Origin: Chloroflexota bacterium
GTDB taxonomy: Bacteria > Chloroflexota > UBA4733
Length of the DNA stretch: 64,000 nt
NCBI GenBank assembly: GCA_023381555.1
Contig: JAMCRV010000114.1
Coordinates: 2,899 to 66,898, forward strand
Direction: 5' to 3'
This document shows positions 9,177 through 64,000 of this stretch, piece by piece (the stretch's first letter is position 1; the number at the start of each line of letters is the position of its first letter). Made by a program: the position numbers and the translations under genes. The notes under the pieces are model-generated. The model ran no database searches and had not been told where the DNA came from. It saw only the letters and a list, made by a program, of their open reading frames with translations.

Positions 9177-10644
9177 CGACACGATAGCCTCGGGGAAGGA
9201 AGCGGCCCAGAGACGGGCCGCGCTGGGGCGCTGGCGAGCGCGCGGTGTCAACCCCTATCCACCCACATTTCATCCCTCCCATACAGCCGTGGAAGCTGGT
9301 GCGCAGGCAGACAGTGAAACGAGTGTCGTGATCGCCGGGAGACTCGGCGCCCTACGGGAGCACGGTCGCATTGCCTTTAGCCACCTCATCGATGACAGCG
9401 GTTCCGTACAGCTTATGTTTCGAAAGGATGTCTTCGGCGAGGCACACTGGGGCATGCTACGGGATCTCCACGCCGGGGACATTGTTGGGGTGGCGGGTGG
9501 TACTTTGCGGTCGCGCGCTGGAGAGCCGTCGGTGTTGGTACGCCAGCTCACGTTGCTGGCGAAGGCGCTCCAGCCGCCTCCTGAGAAGTTCCACGGTCTT
9601 CAGGATGTCGAGCTCCGGTTGCGTAAGCGTTACCTCGATCTCATGGCGAATCCTGCCGTTCGTGAGCTCTTTCGCCAGCGCACGCTTCTCGTAACGCTGA
9701 TGCGCAGTGAGCTCGATCGGCGGGGCTTCCTCGAAGTGGAAACGCCTGTGCTCCAGCCACTCTACGGCGGCGCCGCGGCGAGACCATTTGTTACCCATCA
9801 CAATGAGCTTGAGCAGACCTTGTACCTGCGGATCTCCGATGAACTGTACCTGAAGCGGCTCATCATCGGCGGGTTTCCGAAGGTCTATGAGATTGGTCAT
9901 GACTTTCGCAACGAGGGTGTGTCTCACCGTCATAACCCCGAGTTCACGATGATGGAGCTGTACTGGGCCTATGCCGATTACATCGACATCATGGATCTCA
10001 CGGAAGAAGTGGTCTGTGCCATTGTCCAGGGCGTGACAGGATCGACTTCTGTAACGTATCAGGGATCCAAGCTCGACTTTGCTCCACCTTGGCGCCGGCT
10101 GTCCATGCGTGAGGCACTGTTGCACGCCACAGGACTCGATTTTGGTCAGTTGCGAGATGAAGCTTCGCTGGCGATGGCCTGCCGTGAGCGTGGCCTCTCT
10201 ACTCAAGGCGCGAAAACCTGGGGCAAAATGATCGATGAGCTGGTAAAGACGTACGTTGAGCCAGCGCTGGTTCAGCCGGCATTCCTCGTGGACTACCCCT
10301 GGGAGTTATCTCCCCTAGCGAAGCGCCATCGGGATGATCCGCTCCTTGTGGAACGGTTTGAGGCGTTCGCAGCTGGATTTGAGTTCGCGAATGCCTTCTC
10401 GGAGCTCAACGATCCAGATGATCAGAGGTTGCGCTTCCTTGAGCAAGAACGCGCAGCGAAGGCCGGAGACGAGGAAGCGCACCAGCTCGACGAAGACTAC
10501 ATTGAAGCTCTGGAGCACGGGATGCCGCCGACTGGTGGGCTTGGTATTGGCATTGACCGGCTCACGATGCTCATCACCGACCGGCACTCCATACGAGAGG
10601 TTATCTTGTTTCCACATCTGCGTCGCCTGGAGCAGGAAGGTTAG
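9169..10644 (+). CDS. lysS: lysine--tRNA ligase (class II)
   Basis: Contains FRNEGVSHRHNPEFTMMELYWAY and the C-terminal GGLGIGIDRL motif. I chose GTG 9169, which overlaps the birA stop (GTGATTGA) and is preceded by GGAGGAGGAG. The track ORF starts at 9031 inside birA. Confidence 0.9.
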   Translation: MIDDTIASGKEAAQRRAALGRWRARGVNPYPPTFHPSHTAVEAGAQADSETSVVIAGRLGALREHGRIAFSHLIDDSGSVQLMFRKDVFGEAHWGMLRDLHAGDIVGVAGGTLRSRAGEPSVLVRQLTLLAKALQPPPEKFHGLQDVELRLRKRYLDLMANPAVRELFRQRTLLVTLMRSELDRRGFLEVETPVLQPLYGGAAARPFVTHHNELEQTLYLRISDELYLKRLIIGGFPKVYEIGHDFRNEGVSHRHNPEFTMMELYWAYADYIDIMDLTEEVVCAIVQGVTGSTSVTYQGSKLDFAPPWRRLSMREALLHATGLDFGQLRDEASLAMACRERGLSTQGAKTWGKMIDELVKTYVEPALVQPAFLVDYPWELSPLAKRHRDDPLLVERFEAFAAGFEFANAFSELNDPDDQRLRFLEQERAAKAGDEEAHQLDEDYIEALEHGMPPTGGLGIGIDRLTMLITDRHSIREVILFPHLRRLEQEG

Positions 10645-17948: not shown

Positions 17949-19909
17949 GCGATCGTGATGGCTCGAGAGATGACGCCTGGCACCAAGTCTTGACAGTGAC
18001 GAGAGGTTTGATGATGGACACAGAACTACGCGGGGCGAGCACGCCTGATGTGGAGCGGTTGTTGACAGCGCTTGCAGACCAAGACTTCCTCGGCCAGCTC
18101 CTGGAGCGCAGGGGGCGTGCACGTGAGCTTGCACTGGAAGGAGGCGACGTCAAGCTCGATTGGGTCGATGGAGTTGAGCACGCTCTCAATCATTCGGAAT
18201 GGCTCGAAGCGCTTGCTGACGAGGCCGTGAGTCTCCTGGAGCGCGGTATCCGTCGCGTCATCTGGTCGGGCATGGGCGGCTCCGTCCAGACGGTCTACAC
18301 ACTCCAGCGTTTAGGTCTGCTTGACTCACCTGGCTTGAGTATTCGTCCGCTCGACAGCACAGACCCAGCCGCACTTAACCGCCTCCTCTGCGAGCTGGCT
18401 CAGCGAGAGCACCTGCACCGTGAGGATCGAGAGTTGCCTGCAGCGGCGGTACGCGAGCTCCTGAGTGACACCGCCATGATCGGCGTGAGCATGGGGATGA
18501 CGAGTGAAGAGCCCATCACACATCTCACGTGGTTTGATGAACTCTTGGTGGAGCACCGCATCCCGAATCCACAGGAGCACATCGAGGTGATGACACTTCC
18601 AGGATCATTTCTCGATGCCTTCGCAGAACGGAGAGGCGCCCGGCGCGTACCGATTCAGCTCGATGGAGCAAATCACACCGCTGGACGTATGAGCGCGCCA
18701 GCAACGCGCGTCTTCCTGCGACCAGCAGCATTGATGTTTGCTGCTCAGGGACTGAACCGCACCGAGGTCACAGAGTATCTGCGCACGCTGCTGCGGGAGT
18801 GTCAAAGTTCCTACGGTGTGTCGTATGCCACCACTGCGACAGAGCGGTATGCTCTTACCCTGGCGCATCCCTATCTTCGCCTAGGAGCATTCGTTGCCAG
18901 CGAGGCGAAGGCGCGCCGCAGAAACAAGACTGTGCTCATCTGTCCACCGGCGTGGCGTGGGGTAGCTCCCTGGATCGAGCAGCTCGTCGAGGAGAGCTTG
19001 GGTAAGAACGGCAAGGGCTGGCTCGTCTTCTACGACCAGTCCATCAAAGCACTCGCCAGTCGTGACGACTGCATCTTCCTAGACCTTGCGGCCGGGGGAG
19101 AGCCGGCACTATCGGTGGCAGAGCGAGAGGCGCTCGACGAGACGGAACGTCCGCTCTTGCAACTCGGATTTTCCGTGAATTCTCGTGGGTCCGGTGACCC
19201 GAAATTCGCCGCCGTCGCGGGATTGTTCGCCAACTGGAAGCTTGCCGTGTGGGCTTTCGGTTACCTCCACGATATTGTGGTTGCTGGACAGCCTGGAGTG
19301 GAGGCCTACAAGGCCTATGCTCGAGAGCTCCGTGACGCCAGAACTCCAATCCCTTTCGACGTCGGGCCTGATGACGGTGGCAAGACCACCGTCGATGTTC
19401 GAGCGTTGGAAGACAGTGGAGCGTGGACTTCGCTGGAGGAGCAGCTGCGTCAGCGGTACCGCTCTGCAGCCGGTGATGCGCCTGCCACTCTAGCGGCAGC
19501 GCTTAGAGGCGCTCTGCGTTGTGGGATCCGTTATCTCGATCTCACCTTCAATGGCGAGATCACCGAAGATGTTCGAGGTGCGCTCGAAGAAGCTCGTCGC
19601 ACTATCGGGTTCCAGGCATTGCGACTACCCGTCAAGCTCCGTTGTGGCCCGAGCGACTATCATTCCACTGAGCAGAGTGAAATCGACGGACCCGCGGAGC
19701 TTCTCAGCGTGCGCATCGTGGCTCTGGAGCACGAAAAACCGATAGCAGGGGTGTACCCCGATCGCTTCTTGCTGGCTCAGGCCCGCGGAACTTGGCAAGC
19801 GATGTGGGATGCGCGGCGGCACGTCGTGATGGTCACGTTGCCCACGTATCGCTCTGCTGGTCAGGAACTGCATCGACTCTTTACAGCCGCGGCTATGCTG
19901 CTGGCATAA
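17936..19909 (+). CDS. large SIS/phosphoglucose-isomerase-like protein, function uncertain
   Basis: 657-aa ORF with good coding character. VIWSGMGGSVQT and IGVSMGMTSEEPITHL resemble the PGI/SIS GIGGS and SKSGtTxE motifs. The start is uncertain; an alternative MMDTEL lies near 18011. Confidence 0.45.
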   Translation: MALVSDRDGSRDDAWHQVLTVTRGLMMDTELRGASTPDVERLLTALADQDFLGQLLERRGRARELALEGGDVKLDWVDGVEHALNHSEWLEALADEAVSLLERGIRRVIWSGMGGSVQTVYTLQRLGLLDSPGLSIRPLDSTDPAALNRLLCELAQREHLHREDRELPAAAVRELLSDTAMIGVSMGMTSEEPITHLTWFDELLVEHRIPNPQEHIEVMTLPGSFLDAFAERRGARRVPIQLDGANHTAGRMSAPATRVFLRPAALMFAAQGLNRTEVTEYLRTLLRECQSSYGVSYATTATERYALTLAHPYLRLGAFVASEAKARRRNKTVLICPPAWRGVAPWIEQLVEESLGKNGKGWLVFYDQSIKALASRDDCIFLDLAAGGEPALSVAEREALDETERPLLQLGFSVNSRGSGDPKFAAVAGLFANWKLAVWAFGYLHDIVVAGQPGVEAYKAYARELRDARTPIPFDVGPDDGGKTTVDVRALEDSGAWTSLEEQLRQRYRSAAGDAPATLAAALRGALRCGIRYLDLTFNGEITEDVRGALEEARRTIGFQALRLPVKLRCGPSDYHSTEQSEIDGPAELLSVRIVALEHEKPIAGVYPDRFLLAQARGTWQAMWDARRHVVMVTLPTYRSAGQELHRLFTAAAMLLA

Positions 19910-20062
19910 GTATCCACGTCACGGAGCTCAAGCTCTCTGGAGTTCCAAATGATGACGGCGCCGGATCCAACACGGACCGGAAGGGACGCAAGCTCTTGGC
20001 GCGGCGCCCGTGCCATGGCGGTATTGACCAGCCCGGGCCACGTGCCCACTACCAAGAGATGC

Positions 20063-21178
20063 CTATCCGCTGAAGCGAAAATGGACGACATCGCCGTCCT
20101 GCATGATGTAATCACGGCCTTCAAGACGTACGAGCCCACGTGCCTGAGCTTCGGTCATTGATCCCGCAGCCATAAGGTCATCAAACGCGACGACTTCGGC
20201 TCGAATGAAGCCTCGCTGGATGTCCGAGTGTATCTTTCCAGCTGCTTCAGGAGCGGTCGCACCCTTCCGGACTGTCCAGGCGCGCACCTCCGGTTCACCG
20301 GCCGTCAAGAACGTGAGGAGGTTCAGCAGTTGGTAACCCGCTCGGATGACGGATCCCACGGTTGGTTGCGCGAGTCCCAGGCTCTTGAGATAGTCCGAAG
20401 CATCCGCGTCATCGAGCTGATTGAGCTGGAAGTCAAGGTCTGCGCTGACGACGACAGCCGAGGCGCCTTCCGCCTCGGCCGCAACCTTGACGGACCAGAC
20501 CATCTCGTCGTCCTTGGCGAACGCCGGACCGTATTTCGCCAGGTAGCCTTCGTTAACATTCGCTACGTATACCAGCGGCTTGGCTGTAAGAAGATTGAGC
20601 TCACGCAGAACAGCTGGCGACTCGGACCACTGGATTGAGCGTGCCGGTAGTCCCTCATTGAGCGTTTCCCGCAGGCGTTCGAGATCCTCGAGCTCCTGCT
20701 CAATCTTCGGGTCTCGCGACTTGGCTGCCTTCCGCGTTCGCTCGATCCGGCGATCAACTGCCTGCAGGTCGGCTACGGCCAGCTCGAGATTCAACGTTTC
20801 GATATCCCGCTGAGCATGCACACTACCGTCAACGTGCTCGACGTGATCGGCTTGGAAGCAGCGGATGACCATTGCCAGAGCATCGGCATCCCGCAGGTAA
20901 CCGAGGAATTGATTACCGAGCCCCTCCCCGGTGCTGGCGCCGCGCACCAGACCCGGGACATCAACGAACTCGACGTCGGTCGGTGTCACCTTCTTAGGGT
21001 GAAACATCTCAGCCAGACGGTCGAGTCGCTCGTCTGGCACCTGAACTACACCAATGTTACGCTCCCGCGTAGAAAATGCATAGGTCGCAACCTGCGCTTG
21101 CTCGCGCGTCATGGCGTTGAAGAGCGTCGTCTTACCCACGTTGGGCAATCCAACCAGTCCAACCTGTAACTGACTCAT
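20063..21178 (-). CDS. ychF: ribosome-binding ATPase YchF
   Basis: 371-aa ORF with GLVGLPNVGKTTLFNA, an Obg-like G domain, and a C-terminal TGS-like segment. Confidence 0.93.
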   Translation of the reverse strand: MSQLQVGLVGLPNVGKTTLFNAMTREQAQVATYAFSTRERNIGVVQVPDERLDRLAEMFHPKKVTPTDVEFVDVPGLVRGASTGEGLGNQFLGYLRDADALAMVIRCFQADHVEHVDGSVHAQRDIETLNLELAVADLQAVDRRIERTRKAAKSRDPKIEQELEDLERLRETLNEGLPARSIQWSESPAVLRELNLLTAKPLVYVANVNEGYLAKYGPAFAKDDEMVWSVKVAAEAEGASAVVVSADLDFQLNQLDDADASDYLKSLGLAQPTVGSVIRAGYQLLNLLTFLTAGEPEVRAWTVRKGATAPEAAGKIHSDIQRGFIRAEVVAFDDLMAAGSMTEAQARGLVRLEGRDYIMQDGDVVHFRFSG

Positions 21179-55118: not shown

Positions 55119-55454
55119 CTAGTACCGGTTAGAGCGCATCTTGGCGTAGCACTCGTTACAGTACACCGGCTTGCCCGATGTCGGCTGAAACGGCACGCGT
55201 GCCTCGCGCCCGCACGAGGAACAGGGAACCGTATAGTACTCGCGCTGGCTGTGGCTGCCCGCGTTGTCATACCCAGGCCCGGCAGAACGGTTCTCTCGCG
55301 TACCGGCTGACGACTTGCGCGTTGAGCGGCACTCCGGGCAGCGAGAAGGATCGTGAGAAAGACCATGCGAAGCGTAGAACTGCTGCTCCCCGATAGTGAA
55401 CACAAACGAGCGACCACACTCCCGACACGTCAACGTCTTGTCAGATAGGGCCAT
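55119..55454 (-). CDS. zinc-ribbon protein (two CxxC pairs at each end)
   Basis: 111 aa with CRECG...CPEC and CSSCG...CNEC separated by a basic linker. It is the last gene before the defence island. Confidence 0.6.
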   Translation of the reverse strand: MALSDKTLTCRECGRSFVFTIGEQQFYASHGLSHDPSRCPECRSTRKSSAGTRENRSAGPGYDNAGSHSQREYYTVPCSSCGREARVPFQPTSGKPVYCNECYAKMRSNRY

Positions 55455-55920: not shown

Positions 55921-56631
55921 GTGATTGCGACAGACACCCAGTGGCGCGCCTGCGGCCCGTACTTGGCAGTTAATGCCTCGAAGGCGGGGCTAGTCGATGA
56001 GACGCGCCTCGCCCTGCTGCTCTATCAGCGTCTTGGCGATCTAGACGCAACGAAACGGAAGTTGCTCCAGGACGTCCTGCCCCAGCGCTCTCGCTCCTCG
56101 CGGGAGGGCATCGTGGAACGCATCGTGTCGCGGCTGGCGCGCTGGAACCCGCCGGCCTGGGTCTGCCAGGATCTCATTGCCGCTGCGACCGTGGAGGATG
56201 GCATCGACCTGCGCGCCTTGCTGCTCGTGCACGCCGCCCGGCAAGACAGGCTGCTGTACGAGGTGATCCAATGCCTCGTGGTACCGCGCTGGCGCCGGGG
56301 GGAACAGCAAATCATCCGCGCTGACGTCCAGCACTTCCTCGATGCAGCGGAGTCCGACCATCCTGAAATAGCCCGTTGGAGCCGGCAGACGCGAGAGAAG
56401 CTGGCCAGCAACGTCCTGGCTATCCTGCACGACTATGGCCTCCTGACCGGCAAGGTGACGCGGCGCATCGTCGAGCCGGTGGTGCGTTCAAACGTGGCCG
56501 GGCATTTGGAACGGTTGCTGCTGGAAGAAGGGATCGTGCCAGAGGCCGTCCCCACGCACCCGGACTGGCGGCTGTGGCTTTGGGATGAGCAACGCGTCAA
56601 GAGCTGGCAGATCCGTCGCGATCGGAAGTAA
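55921..56631 (+). CDS. brxA: BrxA-like protein (DUF1819-type)
   Basis: 236 aa and first gene of the cassette. Its size, position and helical pattern (LLLVHAARQDRLLYEVI) are consistent with BrxA. Called mainly from context. Confidence 0.55.
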   Translation: MIATDTQWRACGPYLAVNASKAGLVDETRLALLLYQRLGDLDATKRKLLQDVLPQRSRSSREGIVERIVSRLARWNPPAWVCQDLIAAATVEDGIDLRALLLVHAARQDRLLYEVIQCLVVPRWRRGEQQIIRADVQHFLDAAESDHPEIARWSRQTREKLASNVLAILHDYGLLTGKVTRRIVEPVVRSNVAGHLERLLLEEGIVPEAVPTHPDWRLWLWDEQRVKSWQIRRDRK

Positions 56632-57218
56632 TGGGAATGGATGAGCTAGGCACGCGACTAGAGGCGCTGCTGGTGCGTCTACGCACGGCATATGACGGCA
56701 TCGGCCATAGCTATGGCCGGCCCTACATCTACTTCGTCTACCGGCCGGCGGAGGAACGGGCGCTGCGCAAGCTGGCGGATGAGACATTGCGCAGCGACCA
56801 GACGCTACGCTTTCACCACCTCGATCTGCTGCCGTTGACCATCGCCAGCATCGCCGGCCAGGAGGAGCGCCGGCAGGAGCTGCTGGCCGGTCCGCGCGGC
56901 GGGGCGGTGGCGGGGCAGATCTTGGGACACTGGGTACGGACGTTGGGGCGAGAGATCGACCAGCAGCTCATCGCTATGCAGGATGGCCGGCGGCCGGTCG
57001 TCGTGCTGCGCGGCCTGGCGGCGCTCCATCCGCTCAGTCATCCGACGGCTATGATGGAAGCGCTAGCCGAGCAAGAACCGCGCGATGCCGAGACTGGGCG
57101 GACGGTGCCGCTTGTCGCCCTGGTGCCGGGCGTCCGTCCTCCCCAGACCAGCCGCGAGTATCTGTTTCTGGGGCAGGAGCGGCTGCGCTTCACGTTCTAC
57201 CGAGGAGAGGAGTGGTAA
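56631..57218 (+). CDS. brxB: BrxB-like protein (DUF1788-type)
   Basis: 195 aa. Its start overlaps the brxA stop (TAATG). It has PYIYFVYRPAEE, VVVLRGLAALHP and a C-terminal FTFYRGEEW resembling DUF1788. Confidence 0.6.
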   Translation: MGMDELGTRLEALLVRLRTAYDGIGHSYGRPYIYFVYRPAEERALRKLADETLRSDQTLRFHHLDLLPLTIASIAGQEERRQELLAGPRGGAVAGQILGHWVRTLGREIDQQLIAMQDGRRPVVVLRGLAALHPLSHPTAMMEALAEQEPRDAETGRTVPLVALVPGVRPPQTSREYLFLGQERLRFTFYRGEEW

Positions 57219-60200
57219 TGGCAATCCGCGATCTCTTCGCCACGCGCATTCAGGAGCGCATCGAGCCGGTCGTGAAGATTGCCGACCGTCGCCCCGCCGT
57301 GCTGGCGGGAGAGCTCTCGGCGCTGGTGGTGACGCCCCAATGGGAGCAGTACCTGCGCCGCATCCTCGATGCCTACGTCGACGCTGCCGATCGTGACGAC
57401 GAACAGGCCATCGGCATCTGGATCAGCGGCTTCTTCGGCTCCGGAAAGTCCTTACTGCTCAAAGTGCTGGGTGCACTCCTGGAAGGCGGCGAGCTGGGAG
57501 GGCGCTCCGTCCACGAGATGTTCCTGGAGCGCCTACCGGCGAATAGCCCGGACCGCACCGAGTTGCAGCACCTGCTCACGGCCAGCGCTCATCGGGTGTC
57601 CGCCACCGCCGTAGGCGGCAACCTGCACGCGCTGATCGGTGACACCAGTGACACGCTGGCCCTGATCACCTTCAAGCTGTTTGCCCAGGCGCGAGGCTAC
57701 ACCACGAACTGGGCGCTGGCCTGGGCGGTGGAGTATCAGCTTGACCGGCGCGGCAGCACCGCCGCCTTCCAGCAACACGCTGCCAGCCTGTGCGAGTGCG
57801 ACTGGGAAGACCTCGCCGCCGACGCCGACTTCTATGCCGGCCAGCTCTATCAGGCCGCCGCTGATACGCTGCCAGAGCACTTTGCTGGCGGAGCAGCTGC
57901 CGTGGAACGGGCGGTGGCGGGCGCCACCCGCAACGGCATCGACGCGCGTATGCTAGTGGAGCGGCTGCGGACCTGGTGTGAAGCGCGCGACGCCCATGGA
58001 CGGCGGCATAAAGTGCTACTGCAACTGGACGAGCTGGGCCAGTGGATCGGTGGTGATCCACACAACCGCACCATGCAGGTGGCCGCGCTGGCGGAGGAGG
58101 CGGCCGTGCACGGCGGTGGTCGGGTCTGGATCGGCGTCACTGCTCATGGTGACGTGCAGGAGCTCAGCCAGAACATTCAGCAGGAGTACTATGCCAAGAT
58201 CGTCCAGCGTTTCGGCACGCGCTACAAGCTCAGCAACGAGGAGATGGGCCAGGTCGTCGAGCAGCGCGTGCTCCAGAAGACCCAGCCGGGGCGCCGGGAG
58301 CTGGAGCAGCGGTTCGACGCGCGTAGCGGCGAGCTGACCGACCTCGGCACCCTGGAGCGACCCCAACGGGTCTATGCATCGCCGGACCGGCGGAGCGTAG
58401 CGCTCTTCTATCCCTACTTGCCCTGGACCGTCGCGGTGGTGCCCGACATCGTCAAGAACATCGCTCTGGCTGCGGGACGCGGTGAGGCGCTGAGCGGCGC
58501 CACCCGCACTATGATCGGCGTGGTACAGGGCGGCATCATCGAGACGCCTGGTCTGCTCGACGGCCCGGTCGGACCGCTCTTGAGCCTGGCTGACGTGTAC
58601 GATCAGGTCTCGAGCGACGTGCCCATCGAAACCAAGACCGACCTGAACAGCGTGTTGAAGTCGGTGCCGGAAGCAACGGCGTTCACGGTGCGCGTCGCGC
58701 GGGGCCTGTACCTGCTGGGCAAGGCGGAGTACATCCCACCGACGCTGGAAAATGTGACGCGGGCTCTGGCCGGCGGCCTCGATACTGACCTGGGGGCGCT
58801 GCGCCGGCAGGTGCAGACCGAGCTGGTCCGGCTCATCGACGCGGGCTACGCCAAGCAGGTGGGGGAGGAATACGTCTTCCTCAGCACGCAGCAGCGCGGC
58901 TTCCAGGCTCGCGTGCGCGAGCGGCAGGGCGAACTAGAGAGCCGTAGCTACGAGCTGGTCCAGGCGCTCAAGGAGTTCGAGAGCGATGAGGCTCTGCGCT
59001 TCGACCGGCCGGCCATCGCCGGCGGGCGGGAAATCCCATTGAAATTGGAGATCGACGAGCGCACCGTGCGCAACATCGGCGCCAGCGTGACGTTGCGCGT
59101 CTACAGTCCTTTGCAGCGGGCGCTCGATCCGGCCATCGGCGACGACGTCACACTCAACCAGCGTTCCAACGGCGAGCCGAACAGCATCATTGTGCGCCTG
59201 GGCGAGGCGCCCGACCTGCGCAAGAAACTGGCGCTCACTTTGGCGACGGCCCAGGTCGCCGAGGAGACGCTCAGTGCTACCCCCAACGGTCCGGAGGCGG
59301 AGGTCGCCCGGCAGGCGCGCCAGAACGACCTACCCAGCTTCCGGACGGATGTGCGCCGGCTGCTCGCTCAGGCGGTACGCAACGCTGTCCTCTTTTTCCG
59401 GGGCAGCGGCTACCAGCTCGCCGCGGGTGACAGCCCGGCCGGGGCGGTACGGGCGACGCTGGCCCAGCTCCTGCCCCAGGTCTACCCACGCTTCGCTGAC
59501 GTGCCGCAGCGCATCGCCAATGAAGAGTCAGCGGTGCGCACCGCGCTGGCCGGGGCCGCAAACAGCGACCTCCAGGCGCTCGGCGTCTACAAGGCCGACA
59601 AGAGCATCAATGAAGCCCACGTCCTGCTCACTACCCTGCGCGGAGAGCTGCCGGTAGAAGGACAAGACACGTTGCCGGTGCTCGCGGAGCAGATCCGCAC
59701 CAAGCTGGAAGGACCGCCCTTCGGCTGGGACGGCAACTGCGTCAAGGTGGGGCTGGCGCTGCTGCTGCGCTGTTCCGGCTGCAAGCTGATCGACAACGGG
59801 CAGCCGGTGACCGACCCAACCAACCCGGAAGCGTCCCTCTTGCTCACGCGCGAGCAGCGCTTCAAGAACCTGCGCGTCGTGGCTGTGCGTGGCACCCTCA
59901 CCATGCCGGAGCAGATCCAGATCCGGACGGCGCTGGAGGAAATCTTCCATGAAAAAGCGTCCCTGGTGCCGGCGACGCTCAATGCTAGGCTGGGCACAGG
60001 ATTGGACGCGCTGGTGCGACGGGCACAAGACCTGAGCTCCTGGGCAAATGCGGCCCGCTGCCCCTTGCCGCTGGCCTTCGAGTCTGGACTGAGTCGGGCC
60101 GGCGACCTTGCCAGCGTTACCGCGCCGGCCGTCCGTCTCCAGCGTTTCCTGGGAGAAAGGGAGGCGCTGCGGGACTGGGCGGCGCTGGTGGATGAGTTGG

Positions 60201-60835
60201 AGACTTTCCGGCGGGAGCACGGGGCCGAGTTTGGGGGGATCCGCGACGACGCCAACCGCATGCTCTACCTGGACGTGCCGGTACCCGAGCTGCGCCGCTT
60301 TATCGAAGACTGGCGGACGTTAAGCAACGAGCACAGCGTAACGGAGCCGCCGCGCTGGAACGAATTGGCGGCGGCATATCGGGCAGCCAAAGAGGCACTG
60401 GCCCGTCAGGCCACAACCTGGCGGGAGGAGACAACGACCGAGCTGGCGCAGCTGGAAGCCCAACTGCCAGAGCAAGTCGCCGCCAAGGGAGCGCCGCCCG
60501 CCCAGATGGAGAGCGAGCTGGCTCGCTTACGCGAGGCGCTGGCGCCGGCCCGGCAGCACCTGGAGACTGCCGGCAGCGACATCGGTGCCCTACGGGAAGC
60601 CCGCCACACGCTCGCTGCCGCGCAGTTGGAGTTGCCGCGGCTGTTGCGAGAAATCGAGCTTCGCTACGCTCCGGAGCCGGTGCCGAATACCGATGGGTAC
60701 GACGGCGGGGACAACGGAGCGCTCCGCATCCCGCCGGAGGAAGACCTGGAGACAGCGCTGTCCGGCTTGCGGCAGCGTCTCCAGAATCTCCAGGAGCAAG
60801 GGAAGACAGTCATCGTCACGGTCAAGGTGGAATAG
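57218..60835 (+). CDS. brxC: BrxC/PglY-like P-loop ATPase
   Basis: About 1205 aa with Walker A GFFGSGKS (57428..57451), Walker B-like VLLQLDELGQW, and a C-terminal coiled coil. ATG 57218 overlaps the brxB stop (TAATG); the track start is GTG 57212. Confidence 0.75.
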   Translation: MAIRDLFATRIQERIEPVVKIADRRPAVLAGELSALVVTPQWEQYLRRILDAYVDAADRDDEQAIGIWISGFFGSGKSLLLKVLGALLEGGELGGRSVHEMFLERLPANSPDRTELQHLLTASAHRVSATAVGGNLHALIGDTSDTLALITFKLFAQARGYTTNWALAWAVEYQLDRRGSTAAFQQHAASLCECDWEDLAADADFYAGQLYQAAADTLPEHFAGGAAAVERAVAGATRNGIDARMLVERLRTWCEARDAHGRRHKVLLQLDELGQWIGGDPHNRTMQVAALAEEAAVHGGGRVWIGVTAHGDVQELSQNIQQEYYAKIVQRFGTRYKLSNEEMGQVVEQRVLQKTQPGRRELEQRFDARSGELTDLGTLERPQRVYASPDRRSVALFYPYLPWTVAVVPDIVKNIALAAGRGEALSGATRTMIGVVQGGIIETPGLLDGPVGPLLSLADVYDQVSSDVPIETKTDLNSVLKSVPEATAFTVRVARGLYLLGKAEYIPPTLENVTRALAGGLDTDLGALRRQVQTELVRLIDAGYAKQVGEEYVFLSTQQRGFQARVRERQGELESRSYELVQALKEFESDEALRFDRPAIAGGREIPLKLEIDERTVRNIGASVTLRVYSPLQRALDPAIGDDVTLNQRSNGEPNSIIVRLGEAPDLRKKLALTLATAQVAEETLSATPNGPEAEVARQARQNDLPSFRTDVRRLLAQAVRNAVLFFRGSGYQLAAGDSPAGAVRATLAQLLPQVYPRFADVPQRIANEESAVRTALAGAANSDLQALGVYKADKSINEAHVLLTTLRGELPVEGQDTLPVLAEQIRTKLEGPPFGWDGNCVKVGLALLLRCSGCKLIDNGQPVTDPTNPEASLLLTREQRFKNLRVVAVRGTLTMPEQIQIRTALEEIFHEKASLVPATLNARLGTGLDALVRRAQDLSSWANAARCPLPLAFESGLSRAGDLASVTAPAVRLQRFLGEREALRDWAALVDELETFRREHGAEFGGIRDDANRMLYLDVPVPELRRFIEDWRTLSNEHSVTEPPRWNELAAAYRAAKEALARQATTWREETTTELAQLEAQLPEQVAAKGAPPAQMESELARLREALAPARQHLETAGSDIGALREARHTLAAAQLELPRLLREIELRYAPEPVPNTDGYDGGDNGALRIPPEEDLETALSGLRQRLQNLQEQGKTVIVTVKVE

Positions 60836-60851
60836 CGGGCAGAGGGCAATA

Positions 60852-62909
60852 ATGCAGAAACGCCAGAAGGATCTCCTCCGTGCCGTCGTCCTGGATCTAC
60901 GTCACACGCTCGCCGGCAACACGACCAACGGTAAACAGGTGCGCGGCGACCTGGATCGCGAGCTGGCGCGGCTGGGCGTGGCGCCTGACGGCACGCTGAC
61001 ACCCTTCGACATCGTCGCCAACCCGGCGACCCACGAGCGGCGAGCGCGCCAGGTAGCGGAAGCAGAACTGGCCGGCCTGCCGGGGGCTGAACGCCCGGTG
61101 GCGCGAACAGAACTGGTGGAACACGCCGCCTACTCCTGGATCAACCGGCTGCTGGCGCTGCGGGCGATGGAGGCGCGTGGACTGATTGGGGAGACGCTGC
61201 GTCCCAACCCGGACTACGACGGCCAGCCGGAAGCGCTCTACATCCTCGCCACCACCGACCCGGCGCGCGCCGCCGCGGCCGATCGAGGCTGGTGGAAGGT
61301 GATCGAGGACGTCTGCGCCGGCCAGGCCGCCAGCCTGCCGGGCCTCTTCGGCGCCGGTGACCCCAACACCGCCCTGCGCCCCAGTGTCGCCGCCCTCTTG
61401 CACATCGTTGCCGCCCTTGGCGGCAGCCAGCTACCGGGCTTCACGCTGGAGGACTGCGATGCCGCCTTCTCTGACCCTGACGCCACCGGCTGGGCCTACC
61501 AGTTCTATCAAGAAGAAGCGAAGGCGCAGGTCTACGCCACGCTCAAGGCGGGCGGCAAGGTGACCACGCGGGCTGAGATTGCCGCCGCCACCCAGTTGTT
61601 CACCGAACCCTACATGGTGCAGTGGCTGCTCCAGAACAGTCTCGGCCGCAGCTACCACGAGGCGTATCCAGCAAGCAAGCTGCCGGAGACCTGGCCCTAC
61701 TACATCCGGCCGGAAAGGCTCGACCAGCCGGCCGTCCCGAGCCTCGCCGGTCTCACCGTCATGGACCCGTGCATGGGCAGCGGCCACTTCCTGCGCGAAG
61801 CGTTTGACATGCTCGCGGCAATGTACCGCGAGCAGCAGCCAGTATTGACTGCCGCGGAGATTGCCGGCCGCATCCTGGGTGTGCACCTGCACGGCATCGA
61901 CATCGATCCGCGCGCTGCCCAACTGGCCGCGCTCACCCTTTACCTGCGCGCTTGGGAGCTCGTGCGTGACGAGCGTAAGAGCCGGCGCGTAGCCGGTCTT
62001 GCGCCCTACCGGCCGCCGGTGATGAATCTGGCCACGACGCCCAGCCGCCTGGACACAGGCGTGCTGGACCGCCATCTGCGCCGCCATCCCGAAGATCTGG
62101 TCTTCAAAGACCTGCTGGAAGAGATCTTCGCCTCCCTGGAGCAAGCCGGCATCCTCGGCAGTCTGCTGAAGCCGGAGGAACACCTTGACGCCGGCATCAA
62201 CAAGCTGCGCCGCACGCATACGCAACGCATGGACAGCGACCCCACGGCAATGCAGTTGCGCGCCACCGTCACCCGCCTCATTCAGGATGACCCGGCAGAC
62301 GCCAAGCGTCTACTCTTGGAGCGGGTGGCGGCGATCTTCAACGCCGAGGCTGCGAACACGGGTGATGTCGGGGATCAGCTCTTCGGACGTGAGGCGGAGC
62401 AGGGCGTGCGGCTGGTGCAGTTGCTCGACCGGCACTACGCGGTAGTGGTGACGAATCCGCCGTACATGGGCAGCGCAAACATGGACCGCCCGCTGCGCAG
62501 CTACGTGGAGCGACAGTACCCAGCGGGCAAGCGCGACCTCTATGCCACCTTCATCCAGCGCTGCCTGCAACTCGCTGCAGCTCAGGGCAAGGTGGCGATG
62601 GTGACGCAGCAGTCCTGGATGTTCCTGCGCTCGTTCGCCGACCTGCGCAAGGGCATCCTGGAGCAGCAGACGGTCGACTGTCTCGCGCACCTTGGCCCAC
62701 GTGCCTTCGAAGAAATCTCCGGCGAGGTGGTCAACATCGCACTCTTCGTGGTCACGCAGGCGATACCCAGGCAAGATCACCGGCTGTGGGCGGCGCGGCT
62801 GATCGGACCGAAGAGCCCGGCGGAGAAGGATAAGCTGTTACGGGAGGTGGTGGCGGGTGGGACGCAGACCGAGTCCCGATCACAGCAGGAGATGGAGGCA
62901 GCGCGATGA
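60852..62909 (+). CDS. pglX: PglX-like N6-adenine DNA methyltransferase, short form (685 aa)
   Basis: Contains AYSWINRLLALRAMEARG, QLFTEPYMVQWLLQNSLG, motif I DPCMGSGHF (from 61764) and motif IV TNPPYMG (NPPY at 62454..62465). It ends 147 aa after NPPY. The track ORF start at 60585 lies inside brxC. Confidence 0.8.
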   Translation: MQKRQKDLLRAVVLDLRHTLAGNTTNGKQVRGDLDRELARLGVAPDGTLTPFDIVANPATHERRARQVAEAELAGLPGAERPVARTELVEHAAYSWINRLLALRAMEARGLIGETLRPNPDYDGQPEALYILATTDPARAAAADRGWWKVIEDVCAGQAASLPGLFGAGDPNTALRPSVAALLHIVAALGGSQLPGFTLEDCDAAFSDPDATGWAYQFYQEEAKAQVYATLKAGGKVTTRAEIAAATQLFTEPYMVQWLLQNSLGRSYHEAYPASKLPETWPYYIRPERLDQPAVPSLAGLTVMDPCMGSGHFLREAFDMLAAMYREQQPVLTAAEIAGRILGVHLHGIDIDPRAAQLAALTLYLRAWELVRDERKSRRVAGLAPYRPPVMNLATTPSRLDTGVLDRHLRRHPEDLVFKDLLEEIFASLEQAGILGSLLKPEEHLDAGINKLRRTHTQRMDSDPTAMQLRATVTRLIQDDPADAKRLLLERVAAIFNAEAANTGDVGDQLFGREAEQGVRLVQLLDRHYAVVVTNPPYMGSANMDRPLRSYVERQYPAGKRDLYATFIQRCLQLAAAQGKVAMVTQQSWMFLRSFADLRKGILEQQTVDCLAHLGPRAFEEISGEVVNIALFVVTQAIPRQDHRLWAARLIGPKSPAEKDKLLREVVAGGTQTESRSQQEMEAAR

Positions 62910-63895
62910 GCCCTGTTCCCTATGAGTGGCGACTGCACGCCGAGAGCGACTTGTGGACCGGATCGGTGAAGATAGAGCAGAGGGACAGTCAGCCGAGCGA
63001 GCGAATTGTCCCCGACAAGCTTGTTACCACTGGCCTACTCGGCTCCATTCGCTGGTGGTTTGAGGTGCTGGTTCGCGGCCTTGGCGGCGCCGCATGTGAT
63101 CCATCTGGCGGAGGCGGCAATGATCGTTGCCCAGACCAGGGTGGTAAGCACTGCGTTGTCTGCGAGCTGTTTGGTTGTACGGGCTGGGCGCGCAAGTTCC
63201 GGTTCGAGGTGCGGGATCCGAGCGGTGCGGTCGTGGGCGACCAGATCAAGAGGGACGCCGTCTTCACCCTCCGCTTCACCCCGCTCCGCCCTATCCTGGC
63301 GGAGGAGTGGGCTTTGCTCGATCTGACGCTCCGGCTCATCGCCAACTACGGCGCCATCGGCGGCAAGACGGTGCTCAAGCCATCCGACGAAGCGAATCGC
63401 ATGCGCCTACAGCATCATCTGGACTACGGCATCATCTCAGTTGACGGGCGTCCAACTGTCCCACACGCGTCAAGATTGGAACTCGAAAGCTATGTGCGTG
63501 ACCCCCGTTGGCGGAAACCGCCCCAGACAGACTTCGAATGGGCATCGCTCACCACCTTCTGGTGCGTGAATGACAGCTACCTCGCCAGGCAAGATCCCAG
63601 CCAGAGCACCTTCAATAGGGTCCTGGGTCGAACGGAACCGAAGAATCAGGGCCAGCAGCTGGCGACCAACGATAGGGCAAGCCGGTGGCTCGCCGGACGG
63701 CAGCAAGAGAGCAAGAAGGTCTTCAGCTTCAAGAATCCGCCCCGCACATTCGGATTTGTCAACCCCGGAGTCATCACCTTCGATCAGACGAAGCAGCGCC
63801 TGACGCGGGCATGGGTGAACTTCCGTCCGGATGACTTCGTGACCGGTGACGTTATTCTCGCGCGTCTCACGACACAAGATGGACAGATCCCGTGA
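62906..63895 (+). CDS. RAMP-superfamily protein, Cmr1-like (type III CRISPR-associated family)
   Basis: 329 aa with GSIRWWFEVLVRGL (63041..), CVVCELFGCTGW (63152..63187), a glycine loop NYGAIGGKT (63344..), and C-terminal RTFGFVNPG. Its ATG overlaps the pglX stop (ATGA). Assigned by motif resemblance only. Confidence 0.55.
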   Translation: MSPVPYEWRLHAESDLWTGSVKIEQRDSQPSERIVPDKLVTTGLLGSIRWWFEVLVRGLGGAACDPSGGGGNDRCPDQGGKHCVVCELFGCTGWARKFRFEVRDPSGAVVGDQIKRDAVFTLRFTPLRPILAEEWALLDLTLRLIANYGAIGGKTVLKPSDEANRMRLQHHLDYGIISVDGRPTVPHASRLELESYVRDPRWRKPPQTDFEWASLTTFWCVNDSYLARQDPSQSTFNRVLGRTEPKNQGQQLATNDRASRWLAGRQQESKKVFSFKNPPRTFGFVNPGVITFDQTKQRLTRAWVNFRPDDFVTGDVILARLTTQDGQIP

Positions 63896-64000
63896 CATTC
63901 GAGCTGTACACCGATCTGGCCACCCAAACCTCTTGCCCTACCGACGGCCCGCTGCCCGCGGGGCTGGCATCCGGATTCGTGGACGGATGCACCTTTTGGT
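63892..64000 (+). CDS. 5' end of an unidentified gene running off the window
   Basis: The GTG at 63892 overlaps the RAMP stop (GTGA). There are 36 open GC3-rich codons (VTFELYTDLATQTSCPTDGPLPAGLASGFVDGCTFW) and no recognisable motif. Confidence 0.35.
   Translation, partial: MTFELYTDLATQTSCPTDGPLPAGLASGFVDGCTFW

Follow-up and report, generated by a model that had tools for sequence, protein, structure and literature searches.

The window analyzed here, a 64,000-nucleotide stretch of contig JAMCRV010000114.1 from a Chloroflexota bacterium, closes with the opening genes of a type 1 bacteriophage exclusion (BREX) operon and, behind them on the same strand, a gene of the Cmr1 type that begins a subtype III-C effector cassette of the CRISPR (short palindromic repeats, clustered and regularly interspaced) systems. 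This gene, cmr1 (329 aa), occupies positions 62906..63895 of the plus strand, and its open reading frame (ORF) starts with ATG. A sequence-only reading of the same DNA had singled it out as a repeat-associated mysterious protein (RAMP) on the strength of GSIRWWF, CxxC and G-rich motifs, and all of these are present. LLGSIRWWFEV forms residues 44–54, CVVCELFGCTGW forms residues 83–94, and the G-rich stretches are PSGGGGND and YGAIGGKT. The motifs are conserved over a 26-sequence alignment, with G46, S47, R49, W50 and W51, then C86, E87, G90, C91, T92 and G93, and finally Y148, G149, A150, G152 and G153 being invariant. Profile searches agreed with the RAMP and Cmr1 assignments above curated cut-offs: Pfam RAMPs (PF03787) scored 55.5 bits (cut-off 22.1) over residues 10–155 and the NCBIfam Cmr1 model (TIGR01894) scored 41.5 bits (cut-off 28.65), the Cmr1-specific match being confined to the N-terminal part (residues 35–105). 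PADLOC returned Csm3 and Cmr1 matches for the protein (Cmr1, 2.8e-8). An AlphaFold2 model built on the 26-member alignment (predicted score in the local distance difference test (pLDDT) 84, predicted template modelling (pTM) score 0.88) was compared with solved structures by Foldseek. Cmr1 structures were the best matches (A. fulgidus Cmr1 9l7c_A, and 4l6u_B; E ~1.6e-6), followed by P. furiosus Cmr1 (4w8x) and then Cas7-family subunits, with template modelling scores that were modest (0.40–0.46). We found 1275 homologues, many named Cmr1, as is the identical protein at NCBI, and the identification of 62906–63895 as cmr1 of a III-C cassette is secure. Five cysteines of the protein (C64, C75, C83, C86 and C91; residues 64–91, window positions 63095–63178) are fully or almost fully conserved across the Cmr1 family, which suggests a zinc-binding insertion in the first RNA recognition motif domain; the model is less confident at these residues (pLDDT 65–74).

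The stop codon of cmr1 (TGA, 63893–63895) overlaps the start of the following ORF (GTG, 63892–63894) as GTGA, a coupling that the sequence-only reading had reported together with an inability to match the next product to Cas10 or Cmr2. The reason for this mismatch is that the next ORF is cmr6, of which the window holds the first 36 codons (63892..64000, plus strand) before the gene runs past its end. An exact-sequence look-up of the Cmr1 protein yielded two Logan contigs, one of which (L001) shows 0 mismatches to the window over 8,314 bp and reaches 3 kb farther. L001 carries the full 307-aa cmr6 ORF (PADLOC Cmr6, 1.7e-64) and then cas10c (PADLOC Cas10c, CAS-III-C, 1.2e-72, partial protein). 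The identical Cas10c protein at NCBI (P0241), encoded on a 71-kb contig of a Chloroflexi metagenome-assembled genome (MAG), is named 'Csx11, partial'. The cas10c/csx11 gene is broken off in both assemblies, after 714 codons in L001 (9122–11263) and after 603 in the NCBI contig; a break of two independent assemblies inside the same gene suggests that this stretch holds a repeat, varies between strains or presents a problem of coverage. The proposal that cmr1 opens a type III locus lying beyond the window was therefore correct, and extension of the contig added cmr6 and cas10c but not a complete operon.

A tblastn map gave the order cmr1-cmr6-cas10c-cmr4-cmr5-cmr3 in every related locus long enough, and no other order. 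The window organism shows the first three genes of this cassette. The remaining three, cmr4, cmr5 and cmr3, are observed in relatives and would be expected to follow in the window organism as well. In the related locus L003, whose Cmr1 is 71% identical, Cmr4, Cmr5 (CAS-III-C model) and Cmr3 were confirmed by PADLOC, and Cas10c was matched at 1.3e-107. Every cassette ORF observed is intact, with tight coupling between neighbours. Subtype III-C is defined by Csx11, its Cas10 analogue (PMC3973734). The expectation of a type III-B operon, with cmr1 followed by cas10, was rejected: the Cas10 is of the Csx11 type, the gene order is that of III-C, and cmr6 comes second.

Upstream of cmr1, brxA, brxB, brxC and pglX lie in canonical order on one strand, in agreement with the earlier remark that the same-strand neighbours of the RAMP gene are BREX genes. 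The operon begins with brxA (236 aa; 55921..56631, plus strand; Pfam BrxA 1e-24, PADLOC BrxA 2.2e-23). The second gene, brxB (195 aa; 56631..57218, plus strand), gives a weak PADLOC match (BrxB, 4.3e-4) and is identified also by its position and by 62–65% identity to the BrxB proteins of three related loci, L166–L168. The BREX ATPase gene brxC (1207 aa; 57212..60835, plus strand) matches PADLOC BrxC at 1e-98 and Pfam BREX_BrxC_4th at 3e-10. It is followed by a 685-aa pglX frame (60852..62909, plus strand; PADLOC PglX 6.2e-105; Pfam Eco57I, N6_Mtase and MmeI_Mtase) that encodes the N-terminal and methyltransferase domains, with the S-adenosylmethionine (SAM) motif DPCMGSGHF and the catalytic NPPY intact. 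The start used, ATG 60852, follows the gene call on L001 and lies just past the brxC stop; the longest mechanical ORF begins at GTG 60585 (60585–62909) and overlaps brxC by 250 bp.

At 685 aa, the window PglX compares with about 1200 aa for canonical PglX/BrxX, and its conserved part ends opposite residue 639 of Salmonella PglX. In E. coli BrxX, an N-terminal domain (1–210) and the methyltransferase (211–650) are followed by a target-recognition domain (651–837) and a C-terminal domain (838–1205), with a flexible hinge at 638–675 (PMC11842806). Judged by these alignments, the window PglX is the N-terminal half only and ends at the hinge between methyltransferase and target recognition. In L003 the PglX N-half spans PADLOC model positions 13–623, and the six cas genes separate it from a 657-aa ORF that covers model positions 627–914 and beyond and matches Salmonella PglX 647–857 and BrxX 1062–1188; MNT, HEPN and pglZ genes come after this C-half. 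An Actinomycetota MAG (L010) has the arrangement PglX_N-MNT-HEPN-[cassette]-PglX_C-...-PglZ, and the upstream half of this layout is seen also in a Dehalococcoidia MAG (L008). A tblastn search of the window with reference PglZ proteins gave no match, and neither PglZ nor BrxL is among the PADLOC families listed for the 49 upstream ORFs; pglZ follows in L003 and L010, and pglZ and brxL are found on a further related contig (P0175).

A search with the PglX N-half recovered many homologues of about 685–710 aa from many lineages, 57–63% identical and with the SAM and NPPY motifs intact, as well as full-length proteins of about 1100–1200 aa. L003, L010 and L167 each have an intact C-half ORF of full length, and that of L166 is cut by the contig end. 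Split pglX loci occur in Chloroflexota and Actinomycetota with PglX_N identities of 39–61%, a spread which argues for the long-term upkeep of a two-subunit enzyme. A recent disruption of pglX was rejected, as intact halves recur and the split is maintained. Four independent relatives, together with the junction described below, make it likely that in the window organism, too, the cassette is nested inside a pglX split at the hinge.

The junction itself bears a scar. The pglX stop codon (TGA) overlaps the cmr1 ATG as ATGA (62906–62909). The cmr1 leader, ATGGAGGCNGCNCGATGA, contains the Shine-Dalgarno sequence GGAGG (62894–62898) seven bases 5' of the ATG; read in the pglX frame, it forms an 18-aa tail of the N-half that ends in AGGTQTESRSQQEMEAAR and the stop codon (62853..62909, plus strand). 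Ahead of the cassette, the PglX N-half ends in ..SQQEMEAAR in the window and ..SPQVMEAAR in L003, and a tail ..Q.MEAAR is common to these two and to a remnant in L006. The cassette-free N-halves of L166–L168 lack the MEAAR ending, and two of them end some 17 residues short of it, with ..LREAVR. The L006 remnant (9918–10001; L086 is a duplicate of this locus) consists of 28 codons from the end of a pglX N-half like that of L003 (82% identical), lying directly 5' of cmr1 in a cassette outside BREX. It resembles a vestige of a split pglX from which the cassette departed, and it suggests that the cassette has moved between contexts. A 656-aa ORF 3' of the L006 cassette (18176–20146) gave no Pfam or PADLOC match.

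We read the contexts of four short PglX N-half homologues (L166, L167, L168 and the P0175 contig), whose BREX genes are the closest to those of the window (BrxC 52–55% and BrxB 62–65% identical). In each, the N-half is followed by different cargo: AAA_21 and RloB genes and then the C-half in L166 (12198–14261); a PIN protein and small ORFs and then a C-half aligning over residues 1–649 of 657 in L167 (12436–14662); DUF433 and DUF5615 in L168 (12254–12942), where the contig stops ahead of any C-half; and, on the P0175 contig, MNT and HepT, a 798-aa ORF in the C-half position, pglZ and brxL. L166 and L167 have a confirmed C-half behind the cargo, and no DNA or domain match confirms the identity of the 798-aa ORF. 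This variation indicates that the gap is a cargo slot and that the split arose long ago and has been kept. No cargo observed in it is larger than the III-C cassette.

The catalytic state of the complex was assessed on family alignments. At the N-terminal HD site, 90 of 93 aligned Cas10c sequences read HM, and GGD[DE] is missing from all except one of the 93; a zinc finger, CPVC...C..C, is conserved in the same alignment. Cas10c had no meaningful match when its sequence was searched against the PDB, and the motif status therefore rests on the family alignment. It agrees with published accounts of the III-C Cas10 polymerase as inactivated (PMC8730458; also PMC3973734). In Cmr4, by comparison, 87 of 91 sequences, among them 35 of the 36 that are BREX-linked, retain the catalytic Asp, which corresponds in the alignment to D26 of P. 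furiosus.

The sequence-only reading had seen neither an array nor cas genes upstream, and dedicated searches of the window concur. Tandem Repeats Finder returned 0 rows for the 64 kb, a k-mer array scan detected no CRISPR array, and Rfam gave no match and hence no CRISPR direct-repeat (CRISPR-DR) family. Cas1, Cas2, Cas6 and Cas10 were absent from the PADLOC matches listed for the 49 upstream ORFs (25 of 42 families), among which the sole Cas3 match was a weak, generic helicase match. Relatives nested in BREX-1 had no array within 10 kb. Across the family, by comparison, 15 loci do have an array within 10 kb, from which we conclude that the III-C cassette family is a genuine CRISPR RNA (crRNA) effector. 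Type III effector modules are often encoded away from arrays (PMC3150331). In four loci of close cassette relatives, genes of type I-D (Cas10d, E=0; Cas11d) or type I-G (Cas5/6g, Cas3g) adjoin the cassette (L075, 4916–8184; L011, L095 and L145), and these could be the crRNA donors in those genomes.

A survey was made of the wider family. Loci were gathered from exact look-ups, a scan of GTDB genomes (80 loci) and a metagenome scan by Cmr1 alignment (80 loci), giving 165 loci and, after removal of near-duplicates, 149 locus groups. The flank was 10 kb on each side, with crude ORF calling; flanking genes were clustered and cluster representatives annotated. Loci were chosen by similarity to the window Cmr1, and the survey covers III-C only. 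BREX genes, or genes of Hma, a BREX-related helicase-methylase-ATPase system, lie within 10 kb in 52 groups (35%), cas genes or an array (cas1, cas3, cas4, type I genes or array) in 30 (20%), and neither in 68; the one group with both is counted in each column. When the count is confined to the 88 groups whose flank reaches at least 5 kb upstream or 3 kb downstream, the corresponding numbers are 38, 24 and 27, again with one in both. Every BREX-like flanking gene is co-directional with its cassette (111/111), and in 33 of 47 cases fewer than 100 bp separate cmr1 from the end of the nearest upstream BREX-like gene.

The split pglX of BREX-1 is one of several contexts revealed by the survey. In L132 the cassette stands at the end of a complete BREX-1 operon with an unsplit, 1405-aa PglX. 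At least 12 groups have a BREX-3-like context, in which a methyltransferase, an SNF2 helicase (BrxH), PglZ and BrxA precede the cassette, an order that we take to be that of BREX type 3. The cassette begins 6–24 bp after BrxA of this block in L012, L015, L039, L060, L099, L100, L102, L106, L113, L118, L128, L137 and L164. A 926-aa protein upstream in BREX-3-like loci was identified to the level of a CcrM-like methyltransferase. The Hma contexts show three junctions, HmaB-HmaC-[cassette], HmaA-[cassette]-HmaB-MNT-HEPN and HmaB-[cassette]-HmaC, where HmaB is the DUF1156 methylase and HmaC the DUF499 ATPase; the Hma-linked loci are L007, L017/L018 (Desulfacinum infernum DSM 9756), L059, L089, L117, L136 and L140, then L026, L032, L110, L130 and L139, and L064. 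Loci L004/L005/L009 (3472–20719; Cmr1 66% identical) have the cassette inside a different operon of defence-like character, SbcD-SbcC-NurA-DUF8166-[cassette]-MNT-HEPN-MNT-...-DUF87 (HerA-like). A plasmid collection contributed three distant, partial matches. In a neighbour-joining tree of Cmr1 and Cmr6, BREX/Hma contexts are interleaved with CRISPR-linked ones, and between the window and L003 the BREX genes are far more divergent (BrxC 25% and PglX_N 39% identical) than the cassettes (71%). A single ancestral insertion of the cassette into BREX is for these reasons doubtful.

We consider it probable that the III-C cassette is a co-transcribed, auxiliary RNA-targeting layer lodged in the pglX gap of the BREX operon and supplied with crRNAs from elsewhere. 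The cassette would occupy a slot between the pglX halves that, in related operons of this BREX lineage, appears to hold toxin-antitoxin-like or AbiL-like modules, and it would have brought its own ribosome-binding leader, which now encodes the 18 residues at the end of the PglX N-half. The ATGA and GTGA overlaps indicate that it is probably co-transcribed with BREX. The Cmr-type complex would bind crRNAs from arrays elsewhere in the genome and recognize complementary invader transcripts, which Cmr4, with its conserved catalytic Asp, would cut. The loss of the HD and cyclase motifs from Cas10 leads us to propose that there is no cyclic-oligoadenylate signal and no DNA cutting. The cassette would then be an RNA-level layer expressed with BREX and acting independently of it, with BREX handling DNA through a two-subunit PglX. 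We favour this account because the slot holds unrelated cargo in the closest relatives, because the cassette clade also adjoins type I and adaptation genes, and because auxiliary modules are known to occur embedded in BREX loci. Several points weigh against it. No array or cas6 that could supply crRNAs is visible in the 64 kb. The organism's own sequence ends inside cas10c in both assemblies, and cmr4, cmr5, cmr3, the pglX C-half, pglZ and brxL are consequently placed there by analogy with relatives. A cargo slot explains the BREX-1 cases and not the recurrence at BREX-3-like and Hma operons. The linkage of 38 of 88 well-flanked loci to BREX or Hma, always co-directional, hints at a functional link over neutral co-location, a share that the choice of loci by Cmr1 similarity could inflate.

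A rival explanation is a functional hybrid, in which BREX-1, BREX-3-like and Hma systems took over a III-C complex with a dead Cas10. An RNA-guided or RNA-sensing module would mark foreign or transcribed DNA for the DNA-level machinery, or work physically with it, and the effector activity missing from Cas10 would come from the host system's helicases, ATPases and PglZ. The BREX/Hma linkage of 52 of the 149 groups, the uniform orientation and the short distances to cmr1 (below 100 bp in 33 of 47) speak for it, as does the finding that one locus alone combines BREX-like genes with cas genes or an array. So do the many junctions (inside pglX, after complete BREX-1, after BREX-3-like brxA, and among or after HmaA, HmaB and HmaC), the spread of BREX linkage across the Cmr1-Cmr6 tree, the strong divergence of the window and L003 BREX genes next to similar cassettes, and the lack of HD and GGDD motifs in Cas10; CRISPR variants with an inactivated Cas10 also tend to pair with outside helicases (PMC3150331). 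Such a hybrid is nonetheless rather unlikely in our judgement. Unrelated cargo fills the same pglX gap in the closest BREX relatives, members of the cassette clade also adjoin adaptation genes or genes of types I-D and I-G, or lie within an SbcCD-NurA-HerA-like operon, and no domain fusion, BREX-specific change in a Cmr protein or local guide RNA was found. The association was counted in III-C alone, and defence genes cluster in islands, BREX loci being known hosts of embedded modules. The corresponding general claim, that III-C complexes without Cas10 activities are repeatedly built into BREX-like operons to direct or license the DNA machinery, with the split pglX as one docking point of a CRISPR-BREX hybrid, is equally a doubtful one.

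Decay or accident would require either that the insertion broke pglX and left BREX dead or that an array-less cassette is a non-functional relic. The pglX frame does end about halfway along the normal protein, no array lies within the 64 kb, and both assemblies break inside cas10c. We judge this explanation improbable, given the recurrence of N-halves of about 685–710 aa with intact SAM and NPPY motifs in many lineages (57–63% identity), the intact C-halves of L003, L010 and L167 (aligning over residues 1–649 of 657), the occurrence of split loci in both Chloroflexota and Actinomycetota (39–61% PglX_N identity), and cassette ORFs that are intact and tightly coupled, with a conserved catalytic Asp in Cmr4. 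The sequence-only reading had also entertained a lone RAMP recruited into a non-CRISPR defence context, here BREX, and acting without crRNA or other Cas proteins; the content of the window itself, namely cmr1, the first 36 codons of its follower and neither an array nor a further cas gene, fits that picture. It is almost certainly wrong and was refuted: the identical contig L001 continues with cmr6 and csx11/cas10c, and the whole six-gene cassette, in the same order, is present in every relative long enough to show it. An ordinary juxtaposition of two defence systems, also raised by the sequence-only reading, fares no better, as no array stands beside BREX-linked relatives and the cassette lies between the halves of a split pglX.

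The auxiliary-layer account can be set against known systems. The cassette resembles the III-C module (MTH326-like; Csx11, TIGR02682) in gene content and order (the last three genes being those of relatives), in its highly divergent Cas10 without a cyclase motif, and in being an effector cassette of a kind often encoded away from adaptation genes and arrays; it differs in being operonic with BREX and probably nested inside it, in the in-frame fusion of its leader to the end of the pglX N-half, and in having no array or adaptation gene within reach here. The host operon is like BREX type 1 (brxA-brxB-brxC-pglX-pglZ-brxL) in the canonical order of brxA, brxB, brxC and a PglX-type N6-adenine methyltransferase gene, with pglZ and, in one relative, brxL following in related loci, and is unlike it in that pglX is two genes split at the hinge with foreign cargo between them (the C-half being observed in relatives). 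Large subunits without catalytic motifs, no local adaptation module and recurrent linkage to a non-CRISPR operon are shared with co-opted CRISPR effectors whose nucleases are disabled, namely type IV with DinG and the Tn7-associated type I-F and V-K systems (PMC8730458); here, by contrast, many family members still lie beside arrays, cas1, cas2 or cas4, and any functional dependence is hypothetical. The type IV restriction enzyme BrxU, in the BREX island of pEFER, is an example of an embedded effector. Auxiliary nucleases and HEPN-MNT and PIN modules embedded in BREX loci have been described (Rakesh and Krishnan, Nucleic Acids Research 2026; PMC12839542). Like these, the cassette is an extra defence module on the same strand of a BREX operon, with MNT-HEPN and PIN modules at the same place in relatives, and it differs in being a six-gene CRISPR effector complex and not a single nuclease or toxin-antitoxin pair.

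That BREX survey (PMC12839542) makes no mention of Cas10, Cmr or RAMP proteins, and type III-C goes unmentioned in the PADLOC paper defining Hma. Shah et al. (2018) name three occasional type III neighbours, namely a DUF499 ATPase, a methyltransferase and an HKD-Snf2 protein, without reference to BREX. Mentions of 'type III-C' in the CoCoNuT paper concern a different system and were set aside. Our literature search found no paper on III-C nesting in BREX or on a III-C/BREX association, and both appear undescribed within the literature searched.

Other defence-like genes may lie upstream of BREX in the window. Among the PADLOC matches listed for ORFs of positions 1–55000 are mad3 (2.4e-30), mad8 (two ORFs, 3e-13), PDC-M37B (1.4e-36), DolB (1.5e-31), SngC and a DpdF/BrxH-like helicase. 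Just upstream of brxA and divergent from it, positions 55119–55454 (minus strand) encode a protein of 111 aa in which a zinc-ribbon-like CxxC...CxxC repeat occurs twice; this is where a regulator is encoded in some BREX loci, and an HTH_17 gene in L003.

To our knowledge, subtype III-C is the least understood type III variant, the contribution of its Cas10 beyond RNA cutting being unclear, and the way in which BREX stops phages is likewise unsettled. The organization of the split loci suggests that a BREX methyltransferase can work as two subunits divided at the hinge, much as type I restriction systems have separate methylase and specificity subunits, and that defence cargo is exchanged in the gap between the pglX halves. 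In annotation, a "truncated PglX" with Cas genes after it should not be equated with a broken BREX system. About a third of the cassette family is built into operons of BREX-1, BREX-3-like or Hma type, where stop and start codons often overlap and arrays or adaptation genes are almost never present within 10 kb. This association is a testable lead: BREX-like operons may be preferred carriers of array-less CRISPR effectors, or the two machineries may cooperate.

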